A stretch of 64,000 bases of DNA, from contig DAIUDD010000001.1 of NCBI GenBank assembly GCA_036845805.1, positions 628 through 64,627 of the forward strand, written 5' to 3'. Each line of letters opens with the position of its first letter. The stretch's first letter is position 1. The notes beneath the pieces were generated by a model, which saw nothing but the letters and a program-made list of their open reading frames with translations, was not told where the DNA came from and did not search any database. The position numbers were made by a program, and so were the translations under genes. Positions 2,570-28,958 of the stretch are shown here, piece after piece. Source of the stretch: Patescibacteria group bacterium (GTDB taxonomy: Bacteria; Patescibacteriota; Patescibacteriia; UBA2196).

Positions 2570-2718
2570 AATTTTTTTTGAGCAAATAAAAACTCCGCTG
2601 GTTATTAAATGCGGGGTTTTTTGTTTTTTACTTTTTCATCATTGACATTTTTTGTAAATTTGCTATTTTTAAACCAAAACATTCTTTTACATTGAACTTA
2701 AAAATTGGAGAACTTTTC

Positions 2719-3294
2719 ATGAAAAAGCGCCAAAAAATTGTTTATTCAAAAGAGGGGTATAAATTTGTGGTGGCAGAAGAACCGCCGACAACATTCAAAG
2801 ACTCCACCTGGTATTGCTGGGTGGGGCCAAAGGAGCGACCAACTTTTTGGAGCGAAGAAGGCGGCCAAGATTTTCTGCTTGATGGCAAAGCCCATTTAAG
2901 TATTTTGGGCGATGCCAATAAAGCATCGTTTGCCGATAGTCCGGAACCGGGGCGAATGTGGTATTGGCGCTATGATATAAAGTACTTTCGAGAGTGTTCA
3001 CTGTCCTTAACAGGCAAGCGACAAACAGTGGTATTTTCGAAAGACGGCCAAGTCTTTCGGGTGGGCAGTAAGCCGCCAAAAAAGTTTAGGGCCAATCGCT
3101 GGTATTGTTGGTTAGGCCCAAAAAGGCGCCAACCAGGGTGGAACCTAAGTGGCGATATGAATTTTGTGCTTGATAGTAAAGCACACCTCTGTTGTAAAGC
3201 AGAGGATCACTATGCCGCGTTTGTCGATTCTCCCGATCCAGATCGTCTTTGGAATTGGGGAGAATCAATTGAACACTTTCGACAGTGCAAGTAA
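2719..3294 (+). CDS. Hypothetical protein of two tandem ~95-aa repeats (GC-rich)
   Basis: Internal duplication, both repeats ending in Cys: KIVYSKEGYKF..WYCWVGPKERP..DGKAHL..FADSPEPGRMWYW..YFREC matches TVVFSKDGQVF..WYCWLGPKRRQ..DSKAHL..FVDSPDPDRLWNW..HFRQC. RBS ttggag precedes the ATG at 2719. GC is well above background. Confidence 0.5.
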   Translation: MKKRQKIVYSKEGYKFVVAEEPPTTFKDSTWYCWVGPKERPTFWSEEGGQDFLLDGKAHLSILGDANKASFADSPEPGRMWYWRYDIKYFRECSLSLTGKRQTVVFSKDGQVFRVGSKPPKKFRANRWYCWLGPKRRQPGWNLSGDMNFVLDSKAHLCCKAEDHYAAFVDSPDPDRLWNWGESIEHFRQCK

Positions 3295-3701: not shown

Positions 3702-4436
3702 GTGAAAACTTCAATGGTTGGTATTGGCGCGGTGGAGCTGAAGGCCGTAGCCCAAAAATATATGCTGTGGGCCTTGGTCATTGCTTCACTCATTCATTTG
3801 TCGGTGGTCGGCGCATACTGGGGATCGATTTATCTGGCCAAAGATGAGGAGCCGGTGCGTACTGTCAGAATCATGAAATACACTGACTTGGTTCAGCCGC
3901 CTTCTATTGATCCGACCAGAAATGTGGTGGCGCCAAATGTAGCCATGGCCTCGCCCACGGCTAGGCCCAGCTTGGGAATCCCCGTGCCCGTGCCCGATGC
4001 CGAAGTGAGCCCGGATCAAACTTTTGCTAGTCAACAAGAAATGAATGTCGCCACTGGTCCAGTCACTGATGTGGCCGGATCTGGAGCAGTGCAGATAGAA
4101 AGAGATGTACAAGTTGAAAATATTACCGAAGAGGCACCGCCGCCAGATTTTGTACCGTTTGAGAAAGAACCACAGGTGATCAAACGGATAGAACCGGTTT
4201 ATCCGGAACTGGCGCGCAAAGCCGGTCTCGAAGGCATGGTCTGGGTCAAGCTCTGGGTAGACAAAGAAGGCAAAGTGAAGGATGTGGTTGTCCTGAAAAG
4301 TGCGTCAGAAATTTTCAACCAGCCAGCGATTGAGGCAGCCAAACAATGGATCTTCACGCCAGCCCTCATGAAAACCGGGCCAGTCTCGGTGTGGATCTCT
4401 CTGTCTTTCAGCTTCAAGCTGACGGCGACTAATTGA
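3702..4436 (+). CDS. TonB C-terminal domain protein (energy transducer TonB-like), GC-rich
   Basis: GTG start with aggagg RBS. N-terminal TM segment, Pro-rich linker, and C-terminus PQVIKRIEPVYPELARKAGLEGMVWVKLWVDKEGKVKDVVVLKSASEIFNQPAIEAAKQWIFTPA, the TonB_C fold signature. Confidence 0.65.
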   Translation: MKTSMVGIGAVELKAVAQKYMLWALVIASLIHLSVVGAYWGSIYLAKDEEPVRTVRIMKYTDLVQPPSIDPTRNVVAPNVAMASPTARPSLGIPVPVPDAEVSPDQTFASQQEMNVATGPVTDVAGSGAVQIERDVQVENITEEAPPPDFVPFEKEPQVIKRIEPVYPELARKAGLEGMVWVKLWVDKEGKVKDVVVLKSASEIFNQPAIEAAKQWIFTPALMKTGPVSVWISLSFSFKLTATN

Positions 4437-8000: not shown

Positions 8001-8188
8001 AAAGCATTAAAAAAGATTATGAAATTTTATCAACCGCCATTAAATATGATAGAATTAAATTAAGCATCAGATTAAAAATCGCGGCTTTAAAATTAGTGCT
8101 TAAAACTTATCAAAACCAAGGCCTTATTAAAATCACTGATTATCAAATTTTAATTAATAATTTAAATTATTTATTAAGTAAATTGTAA
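5012..8188 (+). CDS. Large secreted/membrane-anchored protein: beta-helix repeat region plus alpha/beta-hydrolase (lipase-like, GHSMGG) domain
   Basis: N-terminal signal/TM. Repetitive N/S/T-rich segments typical of a right-handed beta-helix. Nucleophile elbow LIAHSMGGLIARAY as in PGAP1-like/lipase class 2. 1058 aa. Confidence 0.55.
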   Translation: MFRILWSLINLNARKIFSLTLFCASVFVFIVLLFSNYVQAASTEVYGVMTTDQVWDKAHSPYVISWRGNGLIIQAKLTILPGTVIKIYANRNWNEYFGLKIDGANGGQLIAEGTIEEPIIFTSWYDDEIMGDTNNDATWYQAPQSGDYRALNFYQTNNSHLENVIIKYGGTARNNNSTILVDNSIINFNNLKLIKNLQPGIVLKNNSQATIENLEAVENKNEILQLYDASKAIFDNSLVHNNFGNSVIKISAAADLSGTNNSFIDNSNQKIIISPYDINQTVTWRKFDLPYYLEGQIKITPTGQLNINAGVEAHFGYYYSRLFNLGELNIMGAAAAPVVFTSFSNNASINNDFWGGVVFEAGSRGQINYLTIKDAGTYAADWTGSTYLTNEYNALRITSAHPEFNHLTIDSSKINGLNITDSSAPVINHCDIKNNLQWGAISNSSALVTFNKCSFINNTAGALRNDSQVVVDARDSWWGSETGPKTGIHSQGQGSQIQGLVVYEPWQGKENLPFSDLEPVIVIPGITGSWQKYIVAGEWRLDPFFHTYDNLLAALRQIGYQDDVNLFPFPYQWRQDNNLTAIDLKNKIQTVKNITGKNKVDLIAHSMGGLIARAYIQSADYMNDVDQLIFLGTPQTGSVNAYVPWMSGLNLVKGKSDIFPRLTNKIFQIEADYYGYNDLFNYVQDKIKSVAQLLPIFDYLIDNETNILRIYPDNYPANTFLENLNQAANVLKLKQRVQMTNVVSKTTITNTVEFLKVMPYLGADGKWPYGYPNNYDNASGDHGLIMGEGDETVPLKSAADLDIYPFIQSDAKHVNLPTTNQNDVIYALTGKQPTTIVEQNNFNGSSVIKAFLLFTLHSPIDIEIIDPSGNKIGKDFNNNLEINNIPGGFYSGFDGPTEFIFIPNPLAGEYKINLQGTADGAYGVEINYNNENQEKNIIFESTIRAGELINLTSNLEPANLDNWQIKTSVDINQIINLAENIWYKYLWAKKIVLVSLQSIKKDYEILSTAIKYDRIKLSIRLKIAALKLVLKTYQNQGLIKITDYQILINNLNYLLSKL

Positions 8189-9071: not shown

Positions 9072-9349
9072 TGAAAAAAAAGAAACCGGCTTTGCGATGG
9101 AGAGTGTGGCTCAGTTTGTCCTTTTTCGTTTTGGGGCTAGTTGTTCAGCTAGTCTACAAAACCGTGGAAGGACCGACACTGGGTGCCATCGCCGCACAGC
9201 AGGCTCAGAACAGCGATGTGGCTTATGCCAAATCGCACTTTTTCATCAACATGGTCACGATTCCCGGCGCCGTCTGGACTGGAATTTTTATCATCCTGGC
9301 TCTGACATGGATCACATACGCCGTGGCTTTTTATCGGACCGCGAAGTGA
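9072..9349 (+). CDS. Small membrane protein (GC-rich)
   Basis: GTG start with ggagg RBS, two TM helices, and upstream promoter ttgaca-17-taagct at 8974. The ORF-track start at 8993 is probably an upstream extension. Confidence 0.4.
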
Positions 9350-9374
9350 ACCAAAACAAAGGAGTGGAAAAGCT

Positions 9375-10373
9375 ATGAAAAAGAGTATGTTGGTCGTCAC
9401 CATGGTCGTGCTGTTTTCGATCCTTTTCGCTTGCGCGCCATATAAAACTCCGATCTTTGTGGAGATCCAGCCCAACGAAACGGCGTTCCTAGTACCCATG
9501 GAAGGAGCCACAAAAGATAATCAAGCTGCTTTTATGAGTGAAGATTATCTCCGTGATGCCAAGGTGGCTTTAAAGAGAATAGAAATTCCTCAACGCCAAG
9601 TGAGCACAGGACGTATGTGGTGGAGTGAAAAATGGATCCCCACGATGCGCGTTATTGTTGTCAATCGCACACCCGTTACTCGTGAATGGACAGTTGATTC
9701 AAACACCGGGACAAGCACGAAAAACGAAGCTTTGGCTACATCATCCAAGGAGTCCATTCCATTTTATGTCGGTTTAACCATTACCGCCTCAATTTTGGAA
9801 GAAGATGCTCCTCGTTTTTTATACCGATACGCCGGTTCGTCATTGGCGGATGTATTGGATAATAACGTTCGAGGCACCACTCTTGCCAAACTTTCCGATA
9901 ATTTTGGAAAGCTAACGGTTGATCAATGCCGGCTTAATAAGAGTGAAATCGTTGGCAAAATTTTTCAGGAAGTCTCCCTGAAGTATAAAGAAGAAGGTGG
10001 AATAACTATTGATGCCATGGGCACCTCCGGGTCATTAGTTTTCTTGGATGAAAATATTCAAACGCGTGTTAACGCAGTGTTCATTGCTGAACAAAACATC
10101 CAAGTGCAAATGAATGAAAAACTGGCACAGGAGGAAACCAATAAAAAGGTTAAGTCCATTGCCGAGACGCGCCTTTATGAGGCCCAGAAATTCGCGGCAG
10201 CCCAGAATGCCACCAACGATATGGTAAAACTGGAAATCCAAAAAATGGGTGCCCAGGCCATGCTCAATGTTTCCGAAGGCATGAGAGACGGCAAGCTCCA
10301 ATTGCCATCCAACATGCTGCCGATTGGTAGTCAACTCCTTTTCGGGATTGACTCCAAGCCGGCTCAAAAGTAG
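9375..10373 (+). CDS. Lipoprotein with coiled-coil C-terminal region (possibly SPFH/band-7-like), GC-rich
   Basis: Signal peptide with lipobox LFAC, then a long Ala/Gln/Glu-rich region EAQKFAAAQNATNDMVKLEIQKMGAQAM. A terminator follows at 10396-10430. Confidence 0.35.
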   Translation: MKKSMLVVTMVVLFSILFACAPYKTPIFVEIQPNETAFLVPMEGATKDNQAAFMSEDYLRDAKVALKRIEIPQRQVSTGRMWWSEKWIPTMRVIVVNRTPVTREWTVDSNTGTSTKNEALATSSKESIPFYVGLTITASILEEDAPRFLYRYAGSSLADVLDNNVRGTTLAKLSDNFGKLTVDQCRLNKSEIVGKIFQEVSLKYKEEGGITIDAMGTSGSLVFLDENIQTRVNAVFIAEQNIQVQMNEKLAQEETNKKVKSIAETRLYEAQKFAAAQNATNDMVKLEIQKMGAQAMLNVSEGMRDGKLQLPSNMLPIGSQLLFGIDSKPAQK

Positions 10374-10479
10374 CCGACGATAAAGTCGCGCTACGCCCCC
10401 AGCTCTCTTCGGAGAACTGGGTTTTTTATTTTATTTACATTGACATTTACCTCTTAAAACCGCTAAAATTAAGCTAACT

Positions 10480-11712
10480 ATGAATTTAATTACTTCCTTT
10501 AAAACCGCAGTCAAAATCTTACGCACTAATCGGCGCCGGACTTTTTTAACCGTGCTTGGCATTATTATTGGCGTGGCCGCCGTGATTATTATTATGTCGG
10601 TTGGCGCTGGCGCTCAAAGTTTAATTTTTGATCAATTTAGTTCTTTTGGCTCTAATTTAATTAGCGTCATGCCCGGTTTTAGCGATGAAAAAGGACCGCC
10701 TGCCTCTGTTATGGGTATTGTCGTTACCACCTTAAAACAAAGCGATGCGGAAGAATTAAAAAAAATTAAAGAAATAGAAAGCGTGGCCAGTTATGTTCGT
10801 GGCATTGATACTATTACTTGGCAAAACCGCGAGGTTGATGCCACTTTTGTTGGCACCAACGTTGATTATGTGGCAGTGGAATCAGTTAAAATTGAACGCG
10901 GTAATTTTTTTGATGAAAGCGATGAAAAAAGTTTAGCGCGCGTGGCGGTTTTAGGCTATCAGGTGGCCGAAGATTTATTTGGCAATCAAAATCCGGTTGG
11001 CGAAGAAATAAAAATAAAACGTGAACGTTTTCGAGTGATTGGCGTCGTAGCCAAAAGGGGAGTGGAAGCGTTTCAAAATCAAGACAATTTAGTTTTCGTG
11101 CCACTGTTAACCGCTCAAAAAATATTACTGGGCATTGATCATGTTAATATGATTCGCGCGCGCGTTTTTAATGATAGCGATGTGCCAGTAGCTATTGAAC
11201 AAATCGAACAAATTTTACGCGCCAATCATGATATTTTTAGTCAAGATGAAGATGATTTTAGTGTTCGTGCCGCTATTCAAGCCCTTGATGCTTTAAAACA
11301 AGTAACCGATGCTCTGACTTTGTTTTTAGCCGCCATTGCCGCTATTTCGCTTTTAGTCGGCGGAGTCGGTATTATGAATATTATGCTCGCCTCAGTAACT
11401 GAACGGACCAAAGAGATTGGTTTGCGCAAAGCCATCGGCGCCACTGCCAATGGCATTCAAAATCAATTTTTAACCGAAGCCGTGGTGATTACAGTCGTGG
11501 GCGGCGCTACTGGTATTGCTTTTGGTTTTTTATTTTCTGGCCTGATTGCTTTGGTGGCTAATTATTTAGGTTATAATTGGCAATTTGTTATTACCCTTTC
11601 TTCTGTTTTATTAGGTCTTGGTGTGTCTTCCTTGGTTGGCATTATTTTTGGCTGGTATCCAGCTCGCCGCGCCGCTCGTCTCGAACCTGTCGAAGCACTG
11701 CGGTATGAATAA
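10480..11712 (+). CDS. ABC transporter permease, MacB/FtsX family
   Basis: N-terminal TM, MacB periplasmic domain, and C-terminal FtsX four-helix region (LLVGGVGIMNIMLASVTERTKEIGLRKAIGA). Confidence 0.85.
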   Translation: MNLITSFKTAVKILRTNRRRTFLTVLGIIIGVAAVIIIMSVGAGAQSLIFDQFSSFGSNLISVMPGFSDEKGPPASVMGIVVTTLKQSDAEELKKIKEIESVASYVRGIDTITWQNREVDATFVGTNVDYVAVESVKIERGNFFDESDEKSLARVAVLGYQVAEDLFGNQNPVGEEIKIKRERFRVIGVVAKRGVEAFQNQDNLVFVPLLTAQKILLGIDHVNMIRARVFNDSDVPVAIEQIEQILRANHDIFSQDEDDFSVRAAIQALDALKQVTDALTLFLAAIAAISLLVGGVGIMNIMLASVTERTKEIGLRKAIGATANGIQNQFLTEAVVITVVGGATGIAFGFLFSGLIALVANYLGYNWQFVITLSSVLLGLGVSSLVGIIFGWYPARRAARLEPVEALRYE

Positions 11713-11831
11713 TAAAAATTTAAAATTCAAAAATCAAAAATTAAAATTACAATTTAAAATCATTAAAATTTTTAAAAAATTTTAATACTTTAATTTTGAC
11801 TTTTGCCTTTTAACTTTTGTTTTTATTTTTT

Positions 11832-13079
11832 ATGTCTTTTCTCTCTACTCTCCATATTGCTTATCGTGCTATCAGATTGCACAAAGTCCGTTCGGTTTTA
11901 ACCGTACTCGGTCTTTTAATTGGCGTCATGTCTATTATTATTGTCATGAATGTCGGGCAGGGTTTAAAAGGTTTAATTTTAGATTATATAAAAATTTTTG
12001 GCTCGGATTATGTGCAAGTGGAAACAAAAGTTCCTACTACCGCTAGAAATTCAGCTGACAACGCTACTAGCATGGCCCAAGGCGTGACCGTTACCACTAT
12101 GAAAATTTCTGATGCCGAGGCGGTTGGTCGTCATCCTAATGTCAAAGGCTACTATGCTGGTCAGATGGGCCAGGCCGTGGCTTCCTATTTAGACGAGAAA
12201 AAAACCGCCATGCTTTGGGGTATTTCCAGCAGTTTTTTTACTTTATCTGAAGCCAAGGTGGAAGCGGGTCGCGAATTTAGTGATGAAGAGGATCGTTCTC
12301 AGGCACGGGTAGTTGTTTTGGGCGCCAACTTAAAAGAGAAACTTTTTGGTTCTGATGACGCTTTGGAAAAATATATAAAAATTGGTAATAAAAATTTTAA
12401 AGTTATTGGCGTTTTGGAAAAACAAGGCGGCAGCATGTTTTTTGACATGGATTCAATTGTTTTTATGCCGGTCAGAACTTTGCAAAAACAAATTATGGGT
12501 GTTGATCATATTCAATTTTTTACTGTTTATTTAAAAGATGCCAGTCAGGCCTATGCCACCGCTGCCGAGATCGAAGATATTTTAAGAGCCGAACATAAAA
12601 TTACTGATCCTAAAAAAGATGACTTTTCTGTCACCACTATGGACGAGGCCATGGGCATGTTAAATACTGTCACTGGTGGCATTTCACTTTTGCTTGTTGC
12701 TATTGCCGCTATTTCTTTAATTGTCGGTGGGGTCGGTATTATGAATATTATGTATGTTTCGGTGACTGAGCGTACTTATGAAATTGGTTTAAGAAAAGCC
12801 TTGGGCGCCACTAGCAAAAATATTTTATGGCAATTTTTATGGGAAGCGATTTTTTTAACTTTTTTAGGCGGTTTGATTGGTGTTTTTCTGGGTACGATTT
12901 TTAGTTTTCTCGGCGCCATAGCCGCTAAATCCGCCGGCTTTGATTTGGGCTTGAATTTTTCTTTAACTGGTTTTATTTTAGGCACGGTTTTTTCCGCCAC
13001 GGTCGGTTTGATTTTTGGCGTTTATCCGGCGCGCAAAGCCGCCGCTTTGGATCCGGTCGAAGCGTTGAGACAAGAATAA
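11832..13079 (+). CDS. ABC transporter permease, MacB/FtsX family (paralog)
   Basis: Same architecture, with LIVGGVGIMNIMYVSVTERTYEIGLRKALGA. ATG at 11832 preferred over the upstream TTG. Confidence 0.85.
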   Translation: MSFLSTLHIAYRAIRLHKVRSVLTVLGLLIGVMSIIIVMNVGQGLKGLILDYIKIFGSDYVQVETKVPTTARNSADNATSMAQGVTVTTMKISDAEAVGRHPNVKGYYAGQMGQAVASYLDEKKTAMLWGISSSFFTLSEAKVEAGREFSDEEDRSQARVVVLGANLKEKLFGSDDALEKYIKIGNKNFKVIGVLEKQGGSMFFDMDSIVFMPVRTLQKQIMGVDHIQFFTVYLKDASQAYATAAEIEDILRAEHKITDPKKDDFSVTTMDEAMGMLNTVTGGISLLLVAIAAISLIVGGVGIMNIMYVSVTERTYEIGLRKALGATSKNILWQFLWEAIFLTFLGGLIGVFLGTIFSFLGAIAAKSAGFDLGLNFSLTGFILGTVFSATVGLIFGVYPARKAAALDPVEALRQE

Positions 13080-13253
13080 AATGTATTATGATTTTTGTAG
13101 GGGTGGGTTTAAAACCCACCCTTTTGTTTTTATCAATATTTCAATATTTTATTTGTAGAGACAAAAAATTTTTGCCCTCCTTGCTCCATTTTTATTGAAG
13201 GCGGGGTTCCGGAACCCCGCCTTCACAACAGGACAGCTCCAGAGCCGCTCTAC

Positions 13254-13280
13254 ATTTTTTGTAACTCTGGTCTTCCCGCC
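13254..13280. repeat. Direct repeat ttttttgtaacYctggtctt, copy 1; copy 2 at 13590-13615
   Basis: tacattttttgtaactctggtcttcccgcc matches attatttttttgtaaccctggtctttaacc; the pair flanks the putative ncRNA locus. Confidence 0.5.
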
Positions 13281-13350
13281 CCGCCGTCTGGCAGGTAGAC
13301 CGGATTTTTTTAAAGCTTGACAAAAAAAACGCTTATGCTAAGATAGTTTT

Positions 13351-13548
13351 AGAAAGATTTTTAAAAAGGCACATCGTCCCAGCGGGTGTGTGCTAGTACT
13401 GCGAACAGCTGGGTATGGGACAGAGGTAGCCTTACTCTGCTCCAGAACGGCTATAAGGCTGCAGCCCGTCTAAGGTGTGCCCTTGCTGGACGGGAATAAG
13501 ATGGCGCGGCACAACGCCCAGGCGAAACATGCCTGGGCTTTTTTTATT
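13351..13548 (+). ncRNA. Candidate structured small RNA (~200 nt, GC-rich) with its own promoter and intrinsic terminator; identity unknown
   Basis: Promoter ttgaca-16-taagat at 13317-13344. Multiple internal hairpins (ggctgcagcc, gggacagagg/ctctgctcc, cgtcccagc/gctggacg). Terminator cccaggcgaaacatgcctggg plus T7 at 13516-13546. No ORF. Confidence 0.45.
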
Positions 13549-13685
13549 CTGTCATAATTATATACTTCATTTTTTTATTTTTGATTTATAATTATTTTTT
13601 TGTAACCCTGGTCTTTAACCGGAGTTTTTAAAAATAAAAAAGCCGAGGTGTGCGCCTCGGCTGTATTGCTACTAACTATGTTAGA

Positions 13686-14237
13686 TTAGAAGAGGAAATC
13701 CAACCCCACATAGCTTTTGTCTTTCATCAAGGTCCCCCAGACCTTAATTTTTTTAGAGGAAAACTCGACGCGCGGGCCAGTACGACGGCCAACGCCAACG
13801 ACCGTTTCGTTGAGGGCACCAACGCCGAGCGTTTTCCAAACTTGGCAATTGGCGATTTGGCGATGCCAGTAGCCGTTTCCGGCTTCATAGAAGCCGATGA
13901 ATGAGATCGGTCCCTTCCCCAACCAAATAAAACTCCCATAACGGTTGGGGTCGGCACCGTTTTGGATGCCGTAGGCCAGGCCCATTTGGCACCAAGATGT
14001 CGGCGCGAGCGACGGACCCGCGTAAGCCTCGGCCCAATATTGACTGATGAGGGCCCATCCCCACCAGCCAATTTTGCCAACCAGAGATCCGCCAACCGAA
14101 ATGTCGATCTGGTTGGCAACCTTGAGGTCACTTCCCGCGGGTTTGGTAAGGCCCGATTGGACCTCAACGAAATTCTGCGCGGTCGCCACTGCAACCAGCG
14201 CCAGAATCATCGCCAAAACTTCCATCATTTTTTTCAT
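13686..14237 (-). CDS. Small outer-membrane beta-barrel protein (OmpW/OmpX-like), GC-rich
   Basis: Signal peptide MKKMMEVLAMILALVAVATA-QNF. Alternating hydrophobic strands and a C-terminus YVGLDFLF with terminal Phe (BAM beta-signal). Terminator gccgaggtgtgcgcctcggc on the minus strand. 183 aa. Confidence 0.6.
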   Translation of the reverse strand: MKKMMEVLAMILALVAVATAQNFVEVQSGLTKPAGSDLKVANQIDISVGGSLVGKIGWWGWALISQYWAEAYAGPSLAPTSWCQMGLAYGIQNGADPNRYGSFIWLGKGPISFIGFYEAGNGYWHRQIANCQVWKTLGVGALNETVVGVGRRTGPRVEFSSKKIKVWGTLMKDKSYVGLDFLF

Positions 14238-14482
14238 TTTTCCCTCCTTGGGAATTAAATTATTATCTGTGATTTATATTTAAAATTATTTTTTCATTTA
14301 AAAAAACTCTTCCACAAAGAAGAGCGCATATTGGCCGAAATTAGCCAAATTATTTCTCTTCTCTTGTAACTATATTATAGCAAATTCACAGAAAATGTCA
14401 ATACCTAATCTGTGTATAAAACAAAAAAATGACTTTCATTAGCCATTTTTTTATATTTTATTTTTATCTCTATAAATCTTTT

Positions 14483-15190
14483 TTATTTAATTAATCCTGC
14501 CTTTCTCCTTTCTATTACTTTTTCATCACTCATAATTTCTCCGTCTTTTAATTTAATAATCCGCTCGGCATATTCGGCCGTATATTGTTCATGAGTGACT
14601 AAAATAATTGTTTTGCCTTGCTCATGTAATTTGTTTAAAATTTGCATCACCTGTTCGCCAGATTTTGAATCCAAATTACCGGTTGGTTCGTCCGCAAAAA
14701 TAAGTGCTGGTTGATTAACCAAAGCTCGGGCAATGGCCACCCTTTGTTTTTCCCCGCCCGATAATTGGTTAGAAAGATTTTCTATTCTGTGTGTTAAATC
14801 CACTGCTTCGACTGCTTGCCTCGACATTTTTTCTTTTTCTGCTGGTGTTAAATTGGGCGTGTAAGTCAGCGGCAATTTAACATTTTCTAAAACCGAAGTG
14901 CGCGGCAATAAATTAAATTGCTGAAAAACAAAACCAATTTCCGCATTGCGCAAGGCCGCTAATTTTTCATCACTAAATTCCGCTGTATTTTCGCCCTTAA
15001 AAATATAGGCGCCCTTGGTCGGTCGGTCTAAGAAACCCAAAATATGCATTAAGGTCGATTTGCCTGAACCAGATTTTCCCATAATCGCCACAAACTCGCC
15101 TTGATTGATGGAAAAATTTAAATCAAACAAAACTGGCGTCACCACTTCATCATTCACATAATCTTTAAATAAGTTTTTAGCTTCGATTAA
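14483..15190 (-). CDS. ABC transporter ATP-binding protein (MacB/LolD-type ATPase)
   Basis: Walker A GKSGSGKST, signature LSGGEKQRVAIARAL, Walker B LIFADEPT. Probable start at MLIEAKNLFKDY. Confidence 0.9.
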   Translation of the reverse strand, partial: LIEAKNLFKDYVNDEVVTPVLFDLNFSINQGEFVAIMGKSGSGKSTLMHILGFLDRPTKGAYIFKGENTAEFSDEKLAALRNAEIGFVFQQFNLLPRTSVLENVKLPLTYTPNLTPAEKEKMSRQAVEAVDLTHRIENLSNQLSGGEKQRVAIARALVNQPALIFADEPTGNLDSKSGEQVMQILNKLHEQGKTIILVTHEQYTAEYAERIIKLKDGEIMSDEKVIERRKAGLIK

Positions 15191-15340
15191 CATTTTTTTA
15201 ATTTCCAAGATACAATTTTCAATTTCCAAATAAGTATCAAATTTCAATAACCAAATTTAAATTATTGGGGATTATAATTTGATTTTTGTAATTTATTTGG
15301 AAATTGTTTCTTGATTATTGGAATTTACTAAAGGTTAATT
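15190..15340. repeat. AT-rich palindromic intergenic repeat, copy 3 (reverse orientation)
   Basis: ccaagatacaattttcaatttccaaataag...tttatttggaaattgtttcttgattattggaatttac sits between the HlyD stop and the ATPase start. Confidence 0.55.
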
Positions 15341-17029
15341 TTTTACAAACGTTATTACTTCTTCTCCCGCCTGCAAACCAGAAATAATTTCTATGCCCTC
15401 ATTACCTTTTAAACCAATTATTACTGTTTTATCTGCAGTGATATTTTTTTTAGCATCAACCAAAACAGTGACATATTTATCGCCATTTTGACTTTTCACT
15501 GCTCTTCCCGGCACCACCAAAACCTGATCTTTTTTAGCTGTGCAAATGGTTACATTAGCGGTCATGCCCGGCTTGACGCCGATTGCTGTTTGATCATTAA
15601 ATTGTACTGTCACTTTATAATAAACCACGTCTTGGATTTCTGTTTCGGCCGGATCAACAAAAACCACCTGGCCCATAAATTTTTGATCTGGCCCAAAAGC
15701 GTCCAAGGTAATTTCTACTTCTTGGCCGACTTGCACTTTGGCAATATCCGATTCGGGAATATCTACTTTTATTTCCAAATTGGTTTTGCCAATCATTTCT
15801 AAAACCGGTGTAGTTAATAATGATTGTTCGCCCACTGAAAAATTTTTCTTGGTAATAGTGCCATCAACCGGCGCAACAATTATCGCATCATTAAAATTGG
15901 CGCGGGCTAAAGCTAAACTGGCGCTGGCTTGCGCCACTCGTGCTTCGGCTGATTTAATATCATAGCTTTGGGCCGGTTTCTTTTTTAGCAGCAATTCTGC
16001 CTCGGCAATGGTCAGGGCTTTTTGAGCGCTCGCCACCGAATTTTCAGCTGAAGCAATTAGATCTTCGTAATAACTTATTTTATTAAGCCAGCTGGCTTTA
16101 GCACTTTGCAAGGTGGAATTGGCTGTATTAATGGCGGTTTGTCTGGTTTTGATATTAGTTTTTAAAGCGTCTAATTCGGTTTCGCTTAAATCAGCAGAAG
16201 TGGTCGTGGCGCCTAAGACATCTAAAGTATCAGCCAAGGCGGTAGCAATTTTGTTAAGCACATTTTTTAAATTGTCACTTATAATTTTCAAATCTTCCGT
16301 ACCAACTGTCAGCTCTAAAGTGTTAATAGTATTTTTTATTTCCTCATAAGCTGTTTGGGCCACAATTTTATTTGTTTCGGCAATATTTAATAACTCTTTG
16401 TTTTTTATTGATAAGGTTCCTTGAGCATCAGTATCATTTAAAGAATTATCAATTTCTTCCAAAGCCGCTTGGGCCGTAACCAATTCATTTTTAAGTGTGG
16501 TAATCAAAGCGTCTTTCAAATTATTTATTTCCACCGCCCCTTTGCTTTTGGTAGTATTTAAATTACTTTCCGCGTTTAATAATTCTTGTTCTTTTTGTAC
16601 TACTCTATCTTCATAAACTTTAATATCTTCAGCCGTGGCCCCGGCTTTTATTTTTTCATAATCAGCTTGAGCTTGTCTGACCGCTGCTTCCGCGTTAGTA
16701 ATTTGACTAGCTAAAGCGCCAGTATCTAAACTGGCTAATTTTTGATTTGCCACCACCTTGTCACCGGCTTTGACTAGAATTTCTTTAATCCGACCAGTAG
16801 TTTTAAAGTTTAAATTAATGGCTTGGGCTGAAGCCACTTGTCCGGTTACATCTACGGTTTGTTTTAAAGTCATAATTTCTACTTTGGCCGTGGTATAGGT
16901 GATGGTTTGGCCGGATTTTTTAGCGCGATAAACTAGACCGATAATTATAATTAAAATTATTAAGCCGATAATCACAAATTTTTTGCGGAATATTTTTAGC
17001 ATATTTTTATAAAAAATTATTATTGCCAT
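15335..17029 (-). CDS. HlyD/MacA-family periplasmic adaptor (membrane fusion protein)
   Basis: N-terminal TM, long coiled coil, and C-terminal beta-barrel/lipoyl-like region (VAPVDGTITKKNFSVGEQ...). 564 aa. Confidence 0.8.
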   Translation of the reverse strand: MAIIIFYKNMLKIFRKKFVIIGLIILIIIIGLVYRAKKSGQTITYTTAKVEIMTLKQTVDVTGQVASAQAINLNFKTTGRIKEILVKAGDKVVANQKLASLDTGALASQITNAEAAVRQAQADYEKIKAGATAEDIKVYEDRVVQKEQELLNAESNLNTTKSKGAVEINNLKDALITTLKNELVTAQAALEEIDNSLNDTDAQGTLSIKNKELLNIAETNKIVAQTAYEEIKNTINTLELTVGTEDLKIISDNLKNVLNKIATALADTLDVLGATTTSADLSETELDALKTNIKTRQTAINTANSTLQSAKASWLNKISYYEDLIASAENSVASAQKALTIAEAELLLKKKPAQSYDIKSAEARVAQASASLALARANFNDAIIVAPVDGTITKKNFSVGEQSLLTTPVLEMIGKTNLEIKVDIPESDIAKVQVGQEVEITLDAFGPDQKFMGQVVFVDPAETEIQDVVYYKVTVQFNDQTAIGVKPGMTANVTICTAKKDQVLVVPGRAVKSQNGDKYVTVLVDAKKNITADKTVIIGLKGNEGIEIISGLQAGEEVITFVKN

Positions 17030-17286
17030 ATTATAGCTAATTTTACATCTTTTTGCAAGTTTTTTATAAATTTGACAAAGTATTTTTATTGTGCTATTAT
17101 TTTTTTACAAAATTAAGAAGTTCTTTAAAAAATAGCCCAAAAACGGGTTAATTTTGTTAAATAAAAAGGAGGTTAAAGGAAAAGAAAAAAATGTTTTTCC
17201 TGCAGGAAACTACTTTTGGGTGGGGATTTTTAATTCGTGAGTTATGTTATGTAAAGAAAAAAGAAAGTTGTAAAACGGAGGTTAAG

Positions 17287-19422
17287 ATGAAAAAGTTTTT
17301 GTTGTTTTTTGCGGTTGTACTGGCGTTTGCTACTTTGTTGTTAGCAGCGCCTCCTGGTGGCAATTCCGGCGCCATTTGGACCACCCGCGGAGACTGCGGT
17401 GATGAAACCAAAGACGCCAATCACTACAAAATTGGTGATCATATTTTTCTCAATGGGCACCAGTTTGATCCCGGCGAGTATGAATGGGAAATAAAAGGCC
17501 AGCCGGGCAATGCTAGTTGCGATCACGGCGACGTCGTCGCGAGTGGTGCATTTACCATTAGCGAAGAAGACAGTGGCGGGTTTTGCTTCGAGGCATATAC
17601 TGTGGCCGAAGATGACTGCGGCGAATATCAAGTCAAATTCGGCAACAAAGGCGACAATTATCGGGTTGAATTGCCACCACCCCCGCCTAACCCTGCCATC
17701 GACATCGAAAAGCTGGTACAAGGTGAAGACGCCGACGTGCCCACCGGTCCTGTTGTGACCGTCGGTGCAACCGTCACGTTTTCATTCATCATCACCAACA
17801 TCGGCGATGTGCCTTTGACCAACATCGTGGTCACGGATAATATCTATGGCACGATCACCCTGCCCAAGACCAGCCTGGAGGCTGGCGAATCCATGACCGG
17901 TTCGACGACCGCAATGGCCGTCGCGGGCCAGCACACCAACACCGCCACGGTGACGGGCAACTACGAAGCGCAGACCGTGACGGACGCGGATCCCGCCAAC
18001 TACTGGGGCGAAACAATGATCGAGCACCATCCTGGCATCGACCTCGAGAAACTGGTACAGGGTGAGGATGCGGATACGCCCACCGGCCCGAATGTGACAG
18101 TTGGCGCCATGGTAACCTTCCAGTTCGTTGTCACCAACACCGGCGATGTGCCGTTGACCAACATTGTGGTCACGGATGATGTCTATGGTACGATAACCAT
18201 GCCAAAGAGCAGTCTGGCTGTGGGTGAATCCATGACCGGCTCGACTGCCGCGGTGGCCGTCGCAGGCCAGCACACCAATATGGCAACCGTCACTGGTAAT
18301 TATGAAACACAAACCGTGACGGATCAGGACCCAGGTAATTACTGGGGAGAGACAAAGCGGCTGCCCCTTGGGGTACACGTGGAGTGCGTGGACAAATATG
18401 TTTTCCGTGATACATATCGGGTACACTTTATTGTTAATAACGCAAACCCGTATGAAGTTCAAATTGGGCTCGGAGCATTTAACAATATTGCTCCAATTGA
18501 GTATGATGGAAAACAGCCAACATCTTTTGGGCCAGGCAAAACCGAATATTTTCTTGAGGTGCCCAATGATGTTTTAGTGAGCTGGTTTCTCGATGTTGAT
18601 TTTGCCATGGCATCAAGAAACTCGGAAATCTGCAAATACGCCGGTACCGACGATGTTGTTGTCGCCGGAATCGGTGTGTATAAAGACGTCAATACAAATG
18701 GTCTATACGATGTCGGGGAGGATTGGATAGAGGCTGATGACCGTGGATTCATGGCTGAGGTTTACATGATTAACGCTTGGACAGGCGAGGTCGTTGGTTC
18801 ACATGCATTGTCTCCGACATTGTTCTTCCGTGCTGGGCGGTATGTTAATTACAGTTTCCGCCAAAAATGGGGCGAGTTTTATATTTTGGCGAAAACTAAA
18901 ATGCCGACCCCATCAGGATATAGGCTTTATCCAAATTACCGAGTCGTGCGCACCAGCGAGTTTCCGGAGCCGTTTTACTCGCTGGAAAATGATTTCGGCC
19001 TAGTGCCGGAATCATTTGAAGGTCCGCTGGACGGCCCATACTTGCCGATGTTGGCGGAATATTTGCCAGCGAGCGCAACTTTGGCTTATCGGGCGCAGTC
19101 ACAGCAGGCTAAGGGTAAGCTGAAAACCGAAGAAGGGATTGGGATCGCGGCTTTGCCCACCGAATTCCAACTGGAGCAGAACTATCCCAACCCGTTCAAT
19201 CCGACCACTACGATCGCCTATGATCTGCCGGCAAGCGGCCAGGTGACGTTGAAGATTTACGATGTATCCGGCCGTGAGGTTGCTGCGCTGGTGAATGAAC
19301 AGCAGCCCGCCGGCCACTACTCGGTCACCTGGCGTGCCGATCACCTCGCCAGTGGCATTTATTTCTATTGCCTCCAGGCCGGGTCGTTCAGTCAGACCAA
19401 ACGTCTGGTTCTAACTAAATAA
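17287..19422 (+). CDS. Secreted protein with two DUF11/conserved-repeat domains and a T9SS C-terminal sorting domain (Por_Secre_tail), GC-rich
   Basis: Signal peptide MKKFLLFFAVVLAFATLLLA. Two tandem repeats at about 80% identity (IDIEKLVQGEDADVPTGP...TNIVVTD). C-terminus NYPNPFNPTTTIAYDLPASGQVTLKIYDVSGREVAALVNEQQPAGHYSVTWRA..ASGIYFYCLQAGSFSQTKRLVLTK matches the type-A T9SS CTD. Confidence 0.75.
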   Translation: MKKFLLFFAVVLAFATLLLAAPPGGNSGAIWTTRGDCGDETKDANHYKIGDHIFLNGHQFDPGEYEWEIKGQPGNASCDHGDVVASGAFTISEEDSGGFCFEAYTVAEDDCGEYQVKFGNKGDNYRVELPPPPPNPAIDIEKLVQGEDADVPTGPVVTVGATVTFSFIITNIGDVPLTNIVVTDNIYGTITLPKTSLEAGESMTGSTTAMAVAGQHTNTATVTGNYEAQTVTDADPANYWGETMIEHHPGIDLEKLVQGEDADTPTGPNVTVGAMVTFQFVVTNTGDVPLTNIVVTDDVYGTITMPKSSLAVGESMTGSTAAVAVAGQHTNMATVTGNYETQTVTDQDPGNYWGETKRLPLGVHVECVDKYVFRDTYRVHFIVNNANPYEVQIGLGAFNNIAPIEYDGKQPTSFGPGKTEYFLEVPNDVLVSWFLDVDFAMASRNSEICKYAGTDDVVVAGIGVYKDVNTNGLYDVGEDWIEADDRGFMAEVYMINAWTGEVVGSHALSPTLFFRAGRYVNYSFRQKWGEFYILAKTKMPTPSGYRLYPNYRVVRTSEFPEPFYSLENDFGLVPESFEGPLDGPYLPMLAEYLPASATLAYRAQSQQAKGKLKTEEGIGIAALPTEFQLEQNYPNPFNPTTTIAYDLPASGQVTLKIYDVSGREVAALVNEQQPAGHYSVTWRADHLASGIYFYCLQAGSFSQTKRLVLTK

Positions 19423-19468
19423 AATAACAAATCGTCTTTTGGAGGAAAGACGATTACATCTCATTAAG

Positions 19469-19505
19469 CCCGCGGACTTTGTCTTGCGGGCTTTTTATTT
19501 TTAGT
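19469..19505 (+). terminator. Intrinsic terminator
   Basis: agcccgcggactttgtcttgcgggcttttt. Confidence 0.6.
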
Positions 19506-19544: not shown

Positions 19545-20978
19545 ATGTTTAATTTAAAAACAGAACAACCGCTTAGCAAATTAGCCTTAATTATTCTTAT
19601 TGGCTTTTTTTTATTATCTCACTTTTATTTCGCCCTCATGTATGAGACGCCGGGTAGCGACACCTATATTTATGGCACTTACGCGCTGTGTTGGTATCAG
19701 TCATTGGGCGCTAATCAGTCTGTTTATGAAATTAATGAAAAACCAATTGAGTACCCACCGTTGTCTGTGCTCTGGATGTCTTTGCCTGCAGTTTTTATTA
19801 ACCAACCGACTTTTGTCGCTTCAGAATTTTTGGCTCAAAATCCGTCCTTGGTTGATTGGCATTCTATTTTTAAATTTTGGTATTGGCTTTTTGACGTTTT
19901 TATTTTCTTAATTGTTTTATTGCTTTTTAAAAAACCTCATAAATTTTTAAAAATCGAACCGCCTAATTTAATCTTATTTATTATTTTTGGTTTGTTATTA
20001 TTAAATTTTCTTTATGATCGCCTTGATTTTTGGCTGGCGGGTTTAATTTTTTTGGCCTTTATTGCCCTTATTAGCCGCCAAACTTATTGGCTGTCATTTT
20101 TTTTATTAGCAATCGCTATTAATTTTAAACTCATTCCAATTTTTTTAGCTCCCATTTTTCTCATTGGCTCTTTGCCGCTTGAATATTTTAAAAATTTTTC
20201 TGCTAATTTTTTTGATCAAAAAATTTGGCTGGCGCTTTTTAAGCGCGGTCTGGTTTTAGTTATTTTAACTGCAGTTATTTTTCTGCCTTTTTATTTCTAT
20301 GATTCAAATCATGTGTTTGATTTTTTTACCTATCATCAAAGCCGCGGCTTGCAATTAGAGTCTTTTTTTAGCTCTTTGCTTTTAATTGGTTCTTGGTTTA
20401 ATGTGCCGCTCCACATTTATCACGATTTTGGCGCCTATAATCTACAAGCGCCCGGCGTTTCTTTTTTGGCCAAGATTTCTTTGCCACTAATTTGTTTTTT
20501 GGTTTTGGTTCTGGCTTGGCGGTTTTTATTGTCTTTTAAAAAAATATTTTCAAAAATTAATGTTTTTTCTTTTGGGAAAGCCCACCATCTGGCTCAATTT
20601 CAGCCGCAAATATTTTTAAAACTGGTTATTGTTGTCCTGCTGGTGGTTATGATTTTTTCCAAAGTCCTTTCCCCTCAATATTTGTTGTGGCTGGTGCCGC
20701 TCTATCCTTTTTTGGCTGTTAAAAACAAAGATAACGTTTTAGCCCTTATCTTCTTCATTTTTTCTCTTTTTTTAACCAATCTAATTTATCCCTATCTTTA
20801 TTCCTATTTTATCCACGGCCAAATTTTATTAGCGAGTGGCGTTACTATTTGGAGCAGCCCCACCACCACGGCCATTATTGTTTTATTAGCTCGCAATATT
20901 TTACTTATCATTACCGCCCTTTTTTTAATTAAAAGTATTTCTAAAGATATTAAAAACATTAACCATCTTGCTAATTAA
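19545..20978 (+). CDS. Polytopic membrane protein, putative GT-C type glycosyltransferase (DUF2029/GT87-like)
   Basis: 477 aa with more than 10 TM helices and no soluble domain. The family call is tentative. Confidence 0.35.
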   Translation: MFNLKTEQPLSKLALIILIGFFLLSHFYFALMYETPGSDTYIYGTYALCWYQSLGANQSVYEINEKPIEYPPLSVLWMSLPAVFINQPTFVASEFLAQNPSLVDWHSIFKFWYWLFDVFIFLIVLLLFKKPHKFLKIEPPNLILFIIFGLLLLNFLYDRLDFWLAGLIFLAFIALISRQTYWLSFFLLAIAINFKLIPIFLAPIFLIGSLPLEYFKNFSANFFDQKIWLALFKRGLVLVILTAVIFLPFYFYDSNHVFDFFTYHQSRGLQLESFFSSLLLIGSWFNVPLHIYHDFGAYNLQAPGVSFLAKISLPLICFLVLVLAWRFLLSFKKIFSKINVFSFGKAHHLAQFQPQIFLKLVIVVLLVVMIFSKVLSPQYLLWLVPLYPFLAVKNKDNVLALIFFIFSLFLTNLIYPYLYSYFIHGQILLASGVTIWSSPTTTAIIVLLARNILLIITALFLIKSISKDIKNINHLAN

Positions 20979-27470: not shown

Positions 27471-28958
27471 ATGTTAAATAAATTCTATCTTACCACCACC
27501 CTGCCATATGTCAATAGCGAACCGCATATTGGTTTTGCTTTGGAAATTATTCAAGCCGATACCATTGCCCGTTGGCAGCGTTTGAATGACAATGAAGTAT
27601 TTTTTAATACTGGCACTGATGAGCATGGTTTAAAAATTTATCGAAAAGCCATGGAAGAGGGCAAAGAACCGCAAGAATATTGTGACGAATATGCGGCCAA
27701 ATTTGATAATTTAAAAAACGCGCTGAATTTAAGTTATAATAATTTTATCCGCACGACCGACAAGCATCATCTAAAAGCAGCGCAAGAATTTTGGCAACGT
27801 TGTGAAAAAAACGGCGACATTTACAAAAAAAACTATCAGGTTAAATATTGTGTCGGCTGCGAATTGGAAAAAACCGAATCGGAATTAGAAAATGACAAAT
27901 GTCCGATTCATCCTAATTTAGAATTAGAATTAATTAATGAAGAAAATTATTTTTTTCGTTTTAGTAAATATCAACAGCCGCTTTTAGATTTATATCATAA
28001 AAATCCAGAATTTGTGGTGCCGGCGCATCGGCTAACCGAAATTAAAAATTTTGTCGCCGCTGGTTTGGAAGATTTTAGCATCTCCCGCCTTAAAGAAAAA
28101 ATGCCTTGGGGTATTAGCGTGCCGGGCGATGAAAATCATGTGATGTATGTTTGGTTTGATGCTCTGATCAATTATATTTCCTGTTTGGGTTGGCCCGAAG
28201 ATGAAAAAAAATTTCAAGAATTTTGGCCAGGGTGTCAGGTTGCGGGCAAAGACAATTTGCGCCAGCAATCGGCCATGTGGCAAGCCATGTTAATGTCTGC
28301 TGGCTTACCGCCATCCAAGCAAATATTTATTCATGGTTTTATTACGGCCAATGGTGAAAAAATGAGTAAATCTCTGGGCAATGTGATTAATCCATTTGAA
28401 TTAGTTAAAAAATTTGGCACTGATGCCGTGCGTTATTATTTGCTGGCTAAAATTTCTCCTTTTGAAGATGGCGATTATACTGAAGAAAAATTTAAAGAAG
28501 CTTATATTGCCGATCTTTGTAATGGTCTTGGCAATCTGGTTTCGCGTGTTTCCAATTTAATTGAAAAGAATGATATTCAAATAGAATGTCATCCTGAGCG
28601 ATTAGCGAAGGATCCCGCATCTTTTCTGTCATCCTCGCGAACGCGAGGATCCCATGGTTTTAAAGATGATCAACTGTCTAAATCATTCTCTGAAAAATTA
28701 GAAAACTATAAATTTAACGAAGCCTTGGAAATTCTTTGGAATAAACTGCGCGCCTGCGATGAAACAGTCACTAAAACTGAACCATGGAAAATTAAAGATC
28801 AAGATAGATTAAAAGAAATTTTAGAACCAATTGCAGAAGATATTTTAAATGTGGCAATTTTACTCCAACCTTTTATGCCCGAAACCGCGGAAAAAATTAA
28901 GGCTACTTTTACCGCAGAAAAAATTAAAAAAAGCGAGCCCTTATTTCCCAGAATATAA
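27471..28958 (+). CDS. metG: Methionine--tRNA ligase, carrying a 66-bp in-frame repeat-element insertion
   Basis: Class I HIGH region (PYVNSEPHIGFA), KMSKS, and zinc knuckles CxxC. The insertion CHPERLAKDPASFLSSSRTRGSHG is encoded by element 28588-28653. Confidence 0.9.
   Translation: MLNKFYLTTTLPYVNSEPHIGFALEIIQADTIARWQRLNDNEVFFNTGTDEHGLKIYRKAMEEGKEPQEYCDEYAAKFDNLKNALNLSYNNFIRTTDKHHLKAAQEFWQRCEKNGDIYKKNYQVKYCVGCELEKTESELENDKCPIHPNLELELINEENYFFRFSKYQQPLLDLYHKNPEFVVPAHRLTEIKNFVAAGLEDFSISRLKEKMPWGISVPGDENHVMYVWFDALINYISCLGWPEDEKKFQEFWPGCQVAGKDNLRQQSAMWQAMLMSAGLPPSKQIFIHGFITANGEKMSKSLGNVINPFELVKKFGTDAVRYYLLAKISPFEDGDYTEEKFKEAYIADLCNGLGNLVSRVSNLIEKNDIQIECHPERLAKDPASFLSSSRTRGSHGFKDDQLSKSFSEKLENYKFNEALEILWNKLRACDETVTKTEPWKIKDQDRLKEILEPIAEDILNVAILLQPFMPETAEKIKATFTAEKIKKSEPLFPRI
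28588..28653 (+). repeat. GTCAT-family double hairpin element inside metG, read in-frame
   Basis: gtcatcctgagcgattagcgaaggatccc + gtcatcctcgcgaacgcgaggatccc. The first unit nearly matches the left arm of the element at 180-210. Confidence 0.7.

Follow-up and report, generated by a model that had tools for sequence, protein, structure and literature searches.

A probable horizontally acquired, adhesin-like protein with an orphan type IX secretion sorting domain in a Patescibacteria genome

A gene located at positions 17287..19422 (+ strand) of a 64,000-nt stretch of a Patescibacteria group bacterium assembly (GCA_036845805.1; contig DAIUDD010000001.1, positions 628 to 64,627; hereafter the window) was found to encode a protein that ends in a type-A C-terminal sorting domain (CTD) of the type IX secretion system (T9SS). 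The evidence presented below is probably best explained by horizontal acquisition of an adhesin of the kind found in the Fibrobacteres-Chlorobi-Bacteroidetes (FCB) group, which is now exported by the Sec pathway of a host belonging to the candidate phyla radiation (CPR) and in which the CTD has become an orphan. By its domains, the protein falls into the TIGR04183 and CLIPPER_2 families, and by its architecture it represents a fibrillar-adhesin-like T9SS cargo, while membership of the functional T9SS substrates cannot be claimed for it in its present host. The protein itself is a recognisable combination of known modules, i.e. a CLIPPER_2 stalk and a T9SS type-A tail; its genomic setting is unusual, in that a sorting signal for an outer-membrane secretion system has been kept intact in a lineage believed to be devoid of an outer membrane, and in that several gene-sized islands rich in GC, this gene among them, code for envelope proteins. 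The gene, its domains and its candidate expression signals are as follows (coordinates are those of the window).

17072..17100, + strand: promoter-like site (TTGACA, 17 nt, TATTAT, with TG upstream), identified by consensus match alone (11/12 positions)
17277..17281, + strand: Shine-Dalgarno sequence GGAGG, 5 nt before the ATG at 17287, read from the sequence
17287..19422, + strand: coding sequence (711 aa plus stop) of an adhesin-like secreted protein with a T9SS type-A CTD, assigned by open reading frame (ORF) and domain profiles
17287..17349, + strand: Sec-type signal peptide MKKFLLFFAVVLAFATLLLAA (aa 1 to ~21), assigned by hydropathy and structural model, with the cleavage site placed by eye
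17356..17676, + strand: N-terminal β-sandwich of ~105 aa (aa 24 to ~130) with four conserved Cys residues, from the full-length AlphaFold model (pLDDT ~82-92)
17686..18027, + strand: CLIPPER_2/DUF7507 repeat 1 (aa 134-247), from Pfam and NCBIfam; DNA repeat copy at 17692-17991
18028..18354, + strand: CLIPPER_2/DUF7507 repeat 2 (aa 248-356), from Pfam and NCBIfam; DNA repeat copy at 18031-18330
18355..19170, + strand: middle region of ~270 aa (aa 357-628), with an immunoglobulin (Ig)-like module and motifs; pLDDT mostly 35-65 (poor model)
19183..19410, + strand: T9SS type-A CTD (aa 633-708 of 711), from PF18962 and TIGR04183
19466..19503, + strand: intrinsic-terminator-like hairpin and T-run, 44 nt past the stop codon (hairpin at 19466-19493)

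The C-terminal domain, which the initial annotation had called a type-A T9SS CTD, was shown to match both Por_Secre_tail (PF18962, Pfam; 40.6 bits against a cutoff of 27) and TIGR04183 (NCBIfam; 45.6 bits against a cutoff of 23, E 5e-12), so that the call stands on a significant match to either profile. The NYPNPFNP motif and the terminal KRLVLTK are both present, and the domain is modelled as a β-sandwich (pLDDT ~70-83) situated at the extreme C-terminus of a protein that, according to hydropathy and model, carries an N-terminal Sec signal peptide. This signal peptide constitutes the sole hydrophobic stretch and the Kyte-Doolittle peak of the protein, with a modelled helix over residues 2-18. 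No other anchoring signal was found in the protein, i.e. neither an LPXTG motif with a transmembrane (TM) segment nor a second hydrophobic stretch.

The two DUF11-type repeats proposed for the body of the protein were likewise recovered by profile searches, with matches in two stretches to DUF7507/CLIPPER_2 (PF24346; 76.5 bits, cutoff 27) and to TIGR01451 (NCBIfam; 48.9 bits, cutoff 24), as well as a match to DUF11 (PF01345; 27.0 bits, cutoff 24.6). DUF11 and DUF7507 are currently named CLIPPER and CLIPPER_2, respectively, in Pfam. According to a 2025 study, the CLIPPER families consist of CnaA-like domains, many of which contain an Asp-catalysed Lys-Asn isopeptide bond, and they typically build the stalk of fibrillar adhesins equipped with a signal peptide and with adhesive and sorting domains (PMC12617251). 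On the basis of residue spacing, putative isopeptide triads were assigned to K142/D184/N218 in repeat 1 and K255/D297/N331 in repeat 2, corresponding to relative positions ~8-9, 50-51 and 84-85, compared with 8, 48 and 88 in a reference CLIPPER_2 domain (PMC12617251). D184 and N218 are nearly invariant in a sequence alignment, and the two CLIPPER_2 domains may be isopeptide-bonded.

For the remainder of the protein, no family assignment was obtained. The N-terminal β-sandwich belongs to no Pfam family, is conserved among high-GC homologues described below, and retrieved generic Ig/Fn3-like folds only in Foldseek searches (E >= 0.01; no informative structural neighbour); when modelled alone, it yielded a poorer prediction (pLDDT 62, compared with ~90 within the full model) and no significant fold match. 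The middle region, which has no Pfam match, contains a DxNxNGxxDxGE motif that by eye is SdrD-B-like, and its conserved C-terminal part includes YRLYPNY, EFPEPFYS and NDFGLVP. A Foldseek search of the full model against the PDB returned generic Ig-like arrays only (complement C3, alpha-2-macroglobulin, HYDIN and titin; TM-scores 0.1-0.2) and no enzyme fold, phmmer produced no match among PDB sequences, and neither Pfam nor NCBIfam assigned the protein to an enzyme family. The protein thus combines a signal peptide, a terminal domain, a repeated stalk and a sorting domain with the lack of an enzymatic domain, as in fibrillar adhesins, although the stalk is short (two CLIPPER_2 repeats and Ig-like modules). 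Because of the CLIPPER_2 architecture, and because structure searches retrieved only Ig-like chains, the protein looks like a short fibrillar adhesin, as judged from its sequence and model.

Fibrillar adhesins of the CLIPPER/CLIPPER_2 type (for example, Acinetobacter silvestris B9T28_05395, PDB 9IFR; PMC12617251) show the same order, in which a signal peptide is followed by a putative binding domain at the N-terminus, a stalk of tandem CnaA-like domains and a C-terminal sorting domain, and the putative triads keep the Lys/Asp/Asn spacing; however, the protein encoded in the window has two stalk repeats only, and a T9SS CTD instead of an OmpA-like or LPXTG element. The second point of comparison is provided by T9SS type-A cargo proteins of Bacteroidota/FCB bacteria, among which are the gingipains of P. 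gingivalis and the SprB and RemA adhesins of Flavobacterium. The present protein resembles such cargo in its N-terminal Sec signal peptide, its ~75-aa C-terminal β-sandwich scoring above both cutoffs, and its modular Ig-like passenger, but differs in that it is encoded as an orphan CTD gene in a Patescibacteria genome, with no T9SS part in 64 kb.

The relatives of the methionyl-tRNA synthetase (MetRS; 27471..28958) assign the window to a Patescibacteria (CPR) genome near Kuenenbacteria and Falkowbacteria, the best named matches being Candidatus Kuenenbacteria (77-78%), 'Patescibacteria group bacterium' (~65-72%) and Falkowbacteria (64-69%). An FCB host genome is rejected on the basis of these relatives, and the Bacteroidota/FCB setting that the initial annotation had implied was therefore not borne out. 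A Pfam scan of ~45 ORFs of the window identified a CPR-type housekeeping backbone of RuvB, SecD/SecF, ClpP, DnaB, RecR, RuvX, ribosomal protein L9 and aminoacyl-tRNA synthetases, together with a MacB-MacB-ABC-MFP exporter (MFP, membrane fusion protein) and a type IV secretion system coupling protein, and no T9SS component among them. A family-specific CTD profile (hidden Markov model) detected no second CTD in the 64-kb window or in related CPR loci. It has been proposed that Patescibacteria lack an outer membrane, and CPR bacteria have been described as epibionts (PMC12102498). Because of this proposed lack of an outer membrane and the lack of any T9SS part in 64 kb, export of the protein by a T9SS in its present host is unlikely. 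The remark of the initial annotation that the protein would have no native route of secretion without a T9SS is accordingly upheld, and forms the key point of the reading given here.

A point absent from that annotation is that the gene constitutes a foreign GC-rich island. Its GC content is 0.52 and its GC content at third codon positions (GC3) 0.58, in a window of 36-38% GC (mean 0.38); compared with the 48 other ORFs of the window (mean GC3 0.34, sd 0.08), this corresponds to a z-score of 3.1. GC values of 0.50-0.59 were observed over the gene and of 0.24-0.39 directly outside it. Along the gene, GC3 ranges from 0.33 to 0.88, with local values of 0.78-0.88 in repeat 1, while the first 66 nt have a GC content of 0.39, compared with 0.53 for the remainder. 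In two CPR relatives (82-83% MetRS identity), neither a CTD gene nor a GC island was present in the 21 kb fetched at the syntenic site; the downstream backbone that these two relatives have in common with the window comprises an aminoacyl-tRNA synthetase, isochorismatase, M16 peptidase, AI-2E transporter, methylase, MetRS, CvpA and TatD. Deviant composition, absence from close relatives and a family at home in another lineage, as expected of a horizontally acquired island, were thus all observed.

The signals for expression lie in DNA of a different kind. A single + strand ORF extends over 17191..19422 in the window, with two candidate start codons, ATG 17191 and ATG 17287. The latter is the better, credible start, because GGAGG precedes it by 5 nt and the product then opens with a signal peptide; protein collections carry the 743-aa version that starts at ATG 17191, with no exact match for the 711-aa product. 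The promoter-like site is the best of the region and is surrounded by intergenic DNA of 24-26% GC, as is typical of the host, and the terminator-like hairpin has a 10-bp stem with six G-C pairs, followed by TTTATTTTTA. Promoter-like site, ribosome-binding site and terminator-like hairpin are all situated in AT-rich, host-like DNA, the GC-rich part being coextensive with the ORF. The gene is maintained and not decaying, since its ORF is intact, its ratio of non-synonymous to synonymous substitution rates (dN/dS) is low, and it has its own promoter-like site, ribosome-binding site and terminator.

The middle region is rare: when 1.84 billion cluster representatives were searched exhaustively with HMMER, it was recovered complete in only five (the protein itself, P0007, P0272, P0273 and P0274), all five of which carry Por_Secre_tail. 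A further 13 middle-domain loci were obtained from GTDB species genomes and JGI metagenomes; every one of them (13/13) is located in a contig of 57-65% GC, and the GC3 of the gene (0.69-0.85) matches that of its flanks. The neighbours at these high-GC loci include CTD paralogues, for which the NCBI name is 'T9SS type A sorting domain-containing protein', as well as a pectate lyase/GH28, a 13x BACON-repeat protein with an FlgD_ig-type tail, and a CsgG-like protein. One of the high-GC metagenome-assembled genomes (MAGs), to which contig CAYTCI010000060 belongs, bears the submitter label 'uncultured Cytophagia bacterium'. Several high-GC contigs (Ga0116171, Ga0116173) and the two CPR contigs (Ga0116158, Ga0116242) carry JGI identifiers of the same series, which we take, from the sample names, to belong to one digester project. 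Viral contigs contained no relative of the middle or N-terminal domain, and thus gave no sign of a phage vector.

It was further observed that several distinct T9SS-CTD proteins are encoded within a few kb on such donor-type contigs (L013, 4881..6986; L016, 5450..8488 and 9968..12040; L025, 7469..12292), including BNR/sortilin-like propellers, a DUF7507 and discoidin-like protein and the 13x BACON protein. This is what a genuine T9SS-cargo neighbourhood looks like.

Compared with the high-GC homologues (HNW59850.1/HPR89266.1, corresponding to P0254 on DAOQAG010000025, and those on JAKPUX010000022 and CAYTCI010000060), the protein shows the same domain order, with identities of 59-62% in the N-terminal GxSGAIWTT...DNYRV domain, 49-55% in the middle region and 54-56% in the CTD. 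In contrast, the homologues have other Ig-like inserts in place of the two CLIPPER_2 repeats, their GC3 (0.81-0.85) matches that of their own genomes, and several CTD paralogues adjoin them. The closest homologue, P0007 (619 aa, 61% identity), is encoded by a CPR MAG (GCA_964498445.1) that is related to the host (MacB 73%, MFP 53% identical). It shares with the protein an MKKFL signal peptide, the CLIPPER_2 repeat (81-84% aa identity), the middle region (55-57%) and the CTD (51-54%), and is likewise encoded on a GC-rich island (0.50 vs 0.31-0.34) adjoining an orthologous MacB-MacB-ABC-MFP cluster; however, its N-terminal domain is a different one, it carries only one repeat, which looks like a hybrid, and it is situated on the other side of the MacB cluster. 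A third copy, P0046, is found in an AT-rich contig (flanks of 0.29-0.39 GC) and nests inside the high-GC clade, with 81% identity to L015; it therefore probably represents a separate transfer. The three copies in AT-rich contexts have an MKK-type, lower-GC signal-peptide segment in common, which the high-GC copies lack. The gene in the window and P0007 may descend from one acquisition or from two.

The repeats provide information on the age of the stalk. Their coordinates (17700-18000 and 18040-18340) and identity (about 80%) as first annotated were essentially right: the computed copies span 17692-17991 and 18031-18330 (300 nt, 77% ungapped identity, far beyond chance), at a spacing of 339 nt or 113 codons, and MAFFT alignment of the two repeats gave 76.8% nucleotide identity over 327 nt and 80% amino-acid identity. 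Their description as a recent tandem duplication was not sustained, the duplication being too old on two counts, i.e. synonymous saturation and the nature of the P0007 repeat. Substitution rates between the repeats (NG86) were dN 0.12 and dS 1.25, or a dN/dS of 0.10, indicative of strong purifying selection on both copies; values of 0.07-0.11 were obtained in the repeats and of about 0.2 in the middle region and CTD, with dS saturated. The single repeat of P0007 is as close to repeat 2 (81% nt, 84% aa) as repeat 1 is (77% nt), and is 78% identical to repeat 1 at the nucleotide level. At sites that discriminate between the two repeats, it is repeat 1-like in its first third (5:1) and repeat 2-like thereafter (2:10; Fisher p = 0.013, the breakpoint having been picked post hoc). 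It thus looks like a hybrid of a repeat 1 head and a repeat 2 tail, as would be left by an unequal crossover that collapsed two repeats; for this reason, the two-repeat state is probably ancestral to both genes and would predate their split.

Together, these observations can be accommodated in the following sequence of events. The family would be native to high-GC, diderm, FCB-type polysaccharide degraders, from which the gene would have passed horizontally to a Patescibacteria lineage of the same anaerobic-digester communities, partial amelioration of its composition following. In the present host, transcription would start from the gene's own AT-rich promoter, and the product would be exported by SecYEG/SecDF alone, with release of the signal peptide; SecDF is encoded within the window. 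Because the lineage is thought to lack an outer membrane, the Sec-exported product would already be outside the cell. The CTD, presumably having no cognate translocon elsewhere in the genome either, would stay as a terminal Ig-like domain of a fibrillar-adhesin-like surface or secreted protein, in which a small putative binding domain is presented on a CLIPPER_2 and Ig-like stalk. Its likely role would be in attaching to other cells or to polymers, as would suit the epibiotic way of life of CPR bacteria.

Other explanations were considered. A high-GC FCB fragment mis-joined into a CPR contig during assembly or binning would account for the sharp, gene-sized jump in GC, and three assemblies stop at one point in the MFP gene, ~0.8 kb upstream of the gene of interest. 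Nevertheless, the identical protein, in the same arrangement of MFP gene, CTD gene and a gene for a 477-aa protein and with both junctions spanned, was found in a 722,062-nt JGI contig (Ga0116242_10000005) and in four other assemblies (ENA, JGI, Logan) derived from different samples and pipelines; such a chimera is rejected as very unlikely, the junctions recurring in at least five independent assemblies. Proteins of the window were also found in NCBI MAGs. It would also leave unexplained why the GC-rich part coincides with the ORF while its flanking signals lie in AT-rich DNA, why GC3 (0.58) is intermediate between donor-type (0.69-0.85) and host (0.34) values, as expected after residence in the host, and why P0007 and P0046 display the same island pattern in other AT-rich contigs. 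That the protein is an ordinary cargo of a T9SS-bearing genome, belonging either to an FCB bacterium or to a CPR lineage with an outer membrane and a T9SS encoded elsewhere, is regarded as very unlikely. The CTD does score well above curated cutoffs and is apparently under purifying selection, and the window also codes for a TonB_C protein and for a product of 183 aa that has a signal peptide and terminates in ...DFLF; these diderm-like genes are, however, GC-rich islands themselves, and so probably foreign. Against ordinary cargo stand, moreover, the Patescibacteria housekeeping genes, the ~45 scanned ORFs devoid of T9SS parts, the proposal that Patescibacteria have no outer membrane (PMC12102498), and the occurrence of a single CTD in 64 kb and the related CPR loci, whereas real T9SS genomes in this dataset show several within ~10 kb.

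Two further explanations concern what the CTD does in its present host. It may have been repurposed, docking the secreted protein on a T9SS-bearing host cell, either at the PorV/PorU attachment complex or at the surface, or binding the envelope of the CPR bacterium itself and so anchoring an epibiont-host adhesin. This appears improbable, even though all CTD motifs are kept in two, probably three, copies in AT-rich contexts, dN/dS is about 0.2, the protein is without another anchoring signal, donor-type bacteria are found in samples of the same digester series and CPR bacteria are epibiotic (PMC12102498): with dS saturated, the signal of selection may stem from donor genomes, and amelioration is only partial, so that the CTD may simply not have had the time to decay since the acquisition. 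Alternatively, the gene may be a non-functional passenger, recently acquired, without a role in the CPR cell and on its way to loss, as its foreign composition, its absence from the closest relatives and the lack of a known receptor for the sorting signal in the phylum might suggest. We consider this unlikely in view of a 711-codon ORF that is intact and identical across assemblies, the strong purifying selection between the repeats (dN/dS 0.10 at dS 1.25), and a partly ameliorated GC3 and host-like signal-peptide segment, which point to long residence without disruption; the small, streamlined genomes of CPR bacteria would also argue against the keeping of a useless 2.1-kb gene. A more elaborate and highly speculative scenario, to which very little weight is given, is that a CPR epibiont captured the adhesin from an FCB-type diderm living nearby, which may be its host, and has kept the CTD because, after Sec export, this is recognised from outside by PorV/PorU or the surface of a T9SS-bearing cell, thereby tethering the adhesin of the epibiont to the host envelope, with the TonB_C and outer-membrane-protein-like products as parts of the same host-interface toolkit.

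Several points weigh against the favoured interpretation, i.e. a horizontally acquired, Sec-exported adhesin with an orphan CTD. The inferred lack of a T9SS is based on general knowledge of the phylum and on 64 kb of a genome that has about 0.7 Mb or more besides; two more GC-rich genes of diderm flavour (one for the TonB_C protein, the other for the signal-peptide protein whose last residue is Phe) are present in the window, and an outer-membrane-like layer in the host is formally conceivable. A strong CTD profile match and a dN/dS of about 0.2 would not be expected of a useless CTD, although, given the saturated dS, some of that path may have been run in donor genomes. An adhesive role and expression are both predicted from sequence, and no cell-anchoring motif was found in the protein. 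As regards the transfer itself, the middle region and CTD are only 49-58% identical to those of any relative, no donor closer than 50-60% identity was identified for them, and the gene appears from sequence comparison to be a mosaic with a transfer history that is not simple: its N-terminal domain is nearest to that of P0028 (a 1200-aa GH99 and CTD protein encoded on a contig that is short; identity of 85% in aa and 82% in nt), while its repeats are nearest to that of P0007 (81-84% aa identity). Finally, the position of P0007 beside an orthologous MacB/MFP cluster could reflect vertical inheritance of older date, a reading with which the retained GC3 agrees poorly.

If the favoured interpretation is correct, surface adhesins have been transferred between phyla, from co-resident FCB-type bacteria into CPR bacteria, and a separate such transfer may be represented by at least one more copy, found in another AT-rich contig. 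The protein would then be a candidate for cell-cell attachment and a possible pointer to a partner organism. The case also calls for caution in annotation, as the name 'T9SS type A sorting domain-containing protein' is no proof of a T9SS in the organism. A literature search for T9SS or Por_Secre_tail in Patescibacteria, CPR or Parcubacteria retrieved no paper linking T9SS sorting domains to Patescibacteria.

The genes surrounding the island were also inspected. The exporter cluster, arranged as MacB-MacB-(ABC ATPase)-(MFP), occupies 10480..17029 of the window and 9260..14772 of the related genome L002; its MFP is long (564 aa), with precomputed matches to the YknX, LcnD and AprE β-barrel families. 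The CTD-protein homologues of the two CPR genomes both adjoin this cluster, on opposite sides; either an insertion hot spot or a functional link could lie behind this. In L001, L007, L008 and L009, derived from several samples, the contigs end ~0.6-0.7 kb into the MFP gene, near position 16.4 kb of the window, whereas the 722-kb contig reads through; these shared ends suggest strain variation or a repeat in the coiled-coil region. Directly downstream of the CTD gene, a 477-aa polytopic membrane protein of host-like composition (GC 0.33) is encoded at 19545..20978 (+), which has no equivalent between the MFP and PF1765-like genes in L002.

Further GC-rich islands flank and interrupt the MacB cluster. 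The TonB_C protein (3702..4436, +; 244 aa), so named after its matches to PF03544 (68 bits) and TIGR01352 (58 bits), has an N-terminal TM segment and is encoded on an island with GC 0.52 and GC3 0.54, with no adjoining ExbB/ExbD gene; members of its cluster are named 'TonB family protein' at NCBI. TonB is the energy transducer of Gram-negative bacteria. The 183-aa outer-membrane-protein-like product (13686..14237, -) carries the signal peptide MKKMMEVLAMILALVAVATAQNF and the C-terminus ...VGLDFLF, the terminal Phe being as in outer-membrane β-barrels; its gene, flanked by those of MacB2 and the ABC ATPase, has the highest GC content of any ORF in the window (GC 0.54, GC3 0.64), and no entry with this start was present in the protein collection. 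Just upstream of MacB1, at 9375..10373 (+), a 332-aa protein with a lipoprotein-like leader (...LFAC) is encoded (GC3 0.48). Searches with relaxed thresholds gave no Pfam or NCBIfam match for the 183-aa, the 332-aa or the 477-aa protein. A 200-aa protein with two internal repeats of ~90 aa, encoded at 2692..3294 (+; GC 0.46), also has no family match; its ORF, like that of the 332-aa protein, is moderately GC-rich.

Two other genes of the window were noted. In SecD (34779..36464, +), a peptidyl-prolyl isomerase domain of the PpiC type (Rotamase_3; 87 bits; aa 153-238) is inserted after the first P1 subdomain (SecD_1st) and before the P1 head (SecDF_P1_head), representing an unusual fusion of an accessory translocon subunit and a foldase. 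The second, located at 5012..8188 (+) and of host-like composition (GC 0.33), encodes a 1058-aa protein in which a right-handed β-helix is combined with an LCAT/lipase-type α/β hydrolase, and which is a possible secreted lipase.

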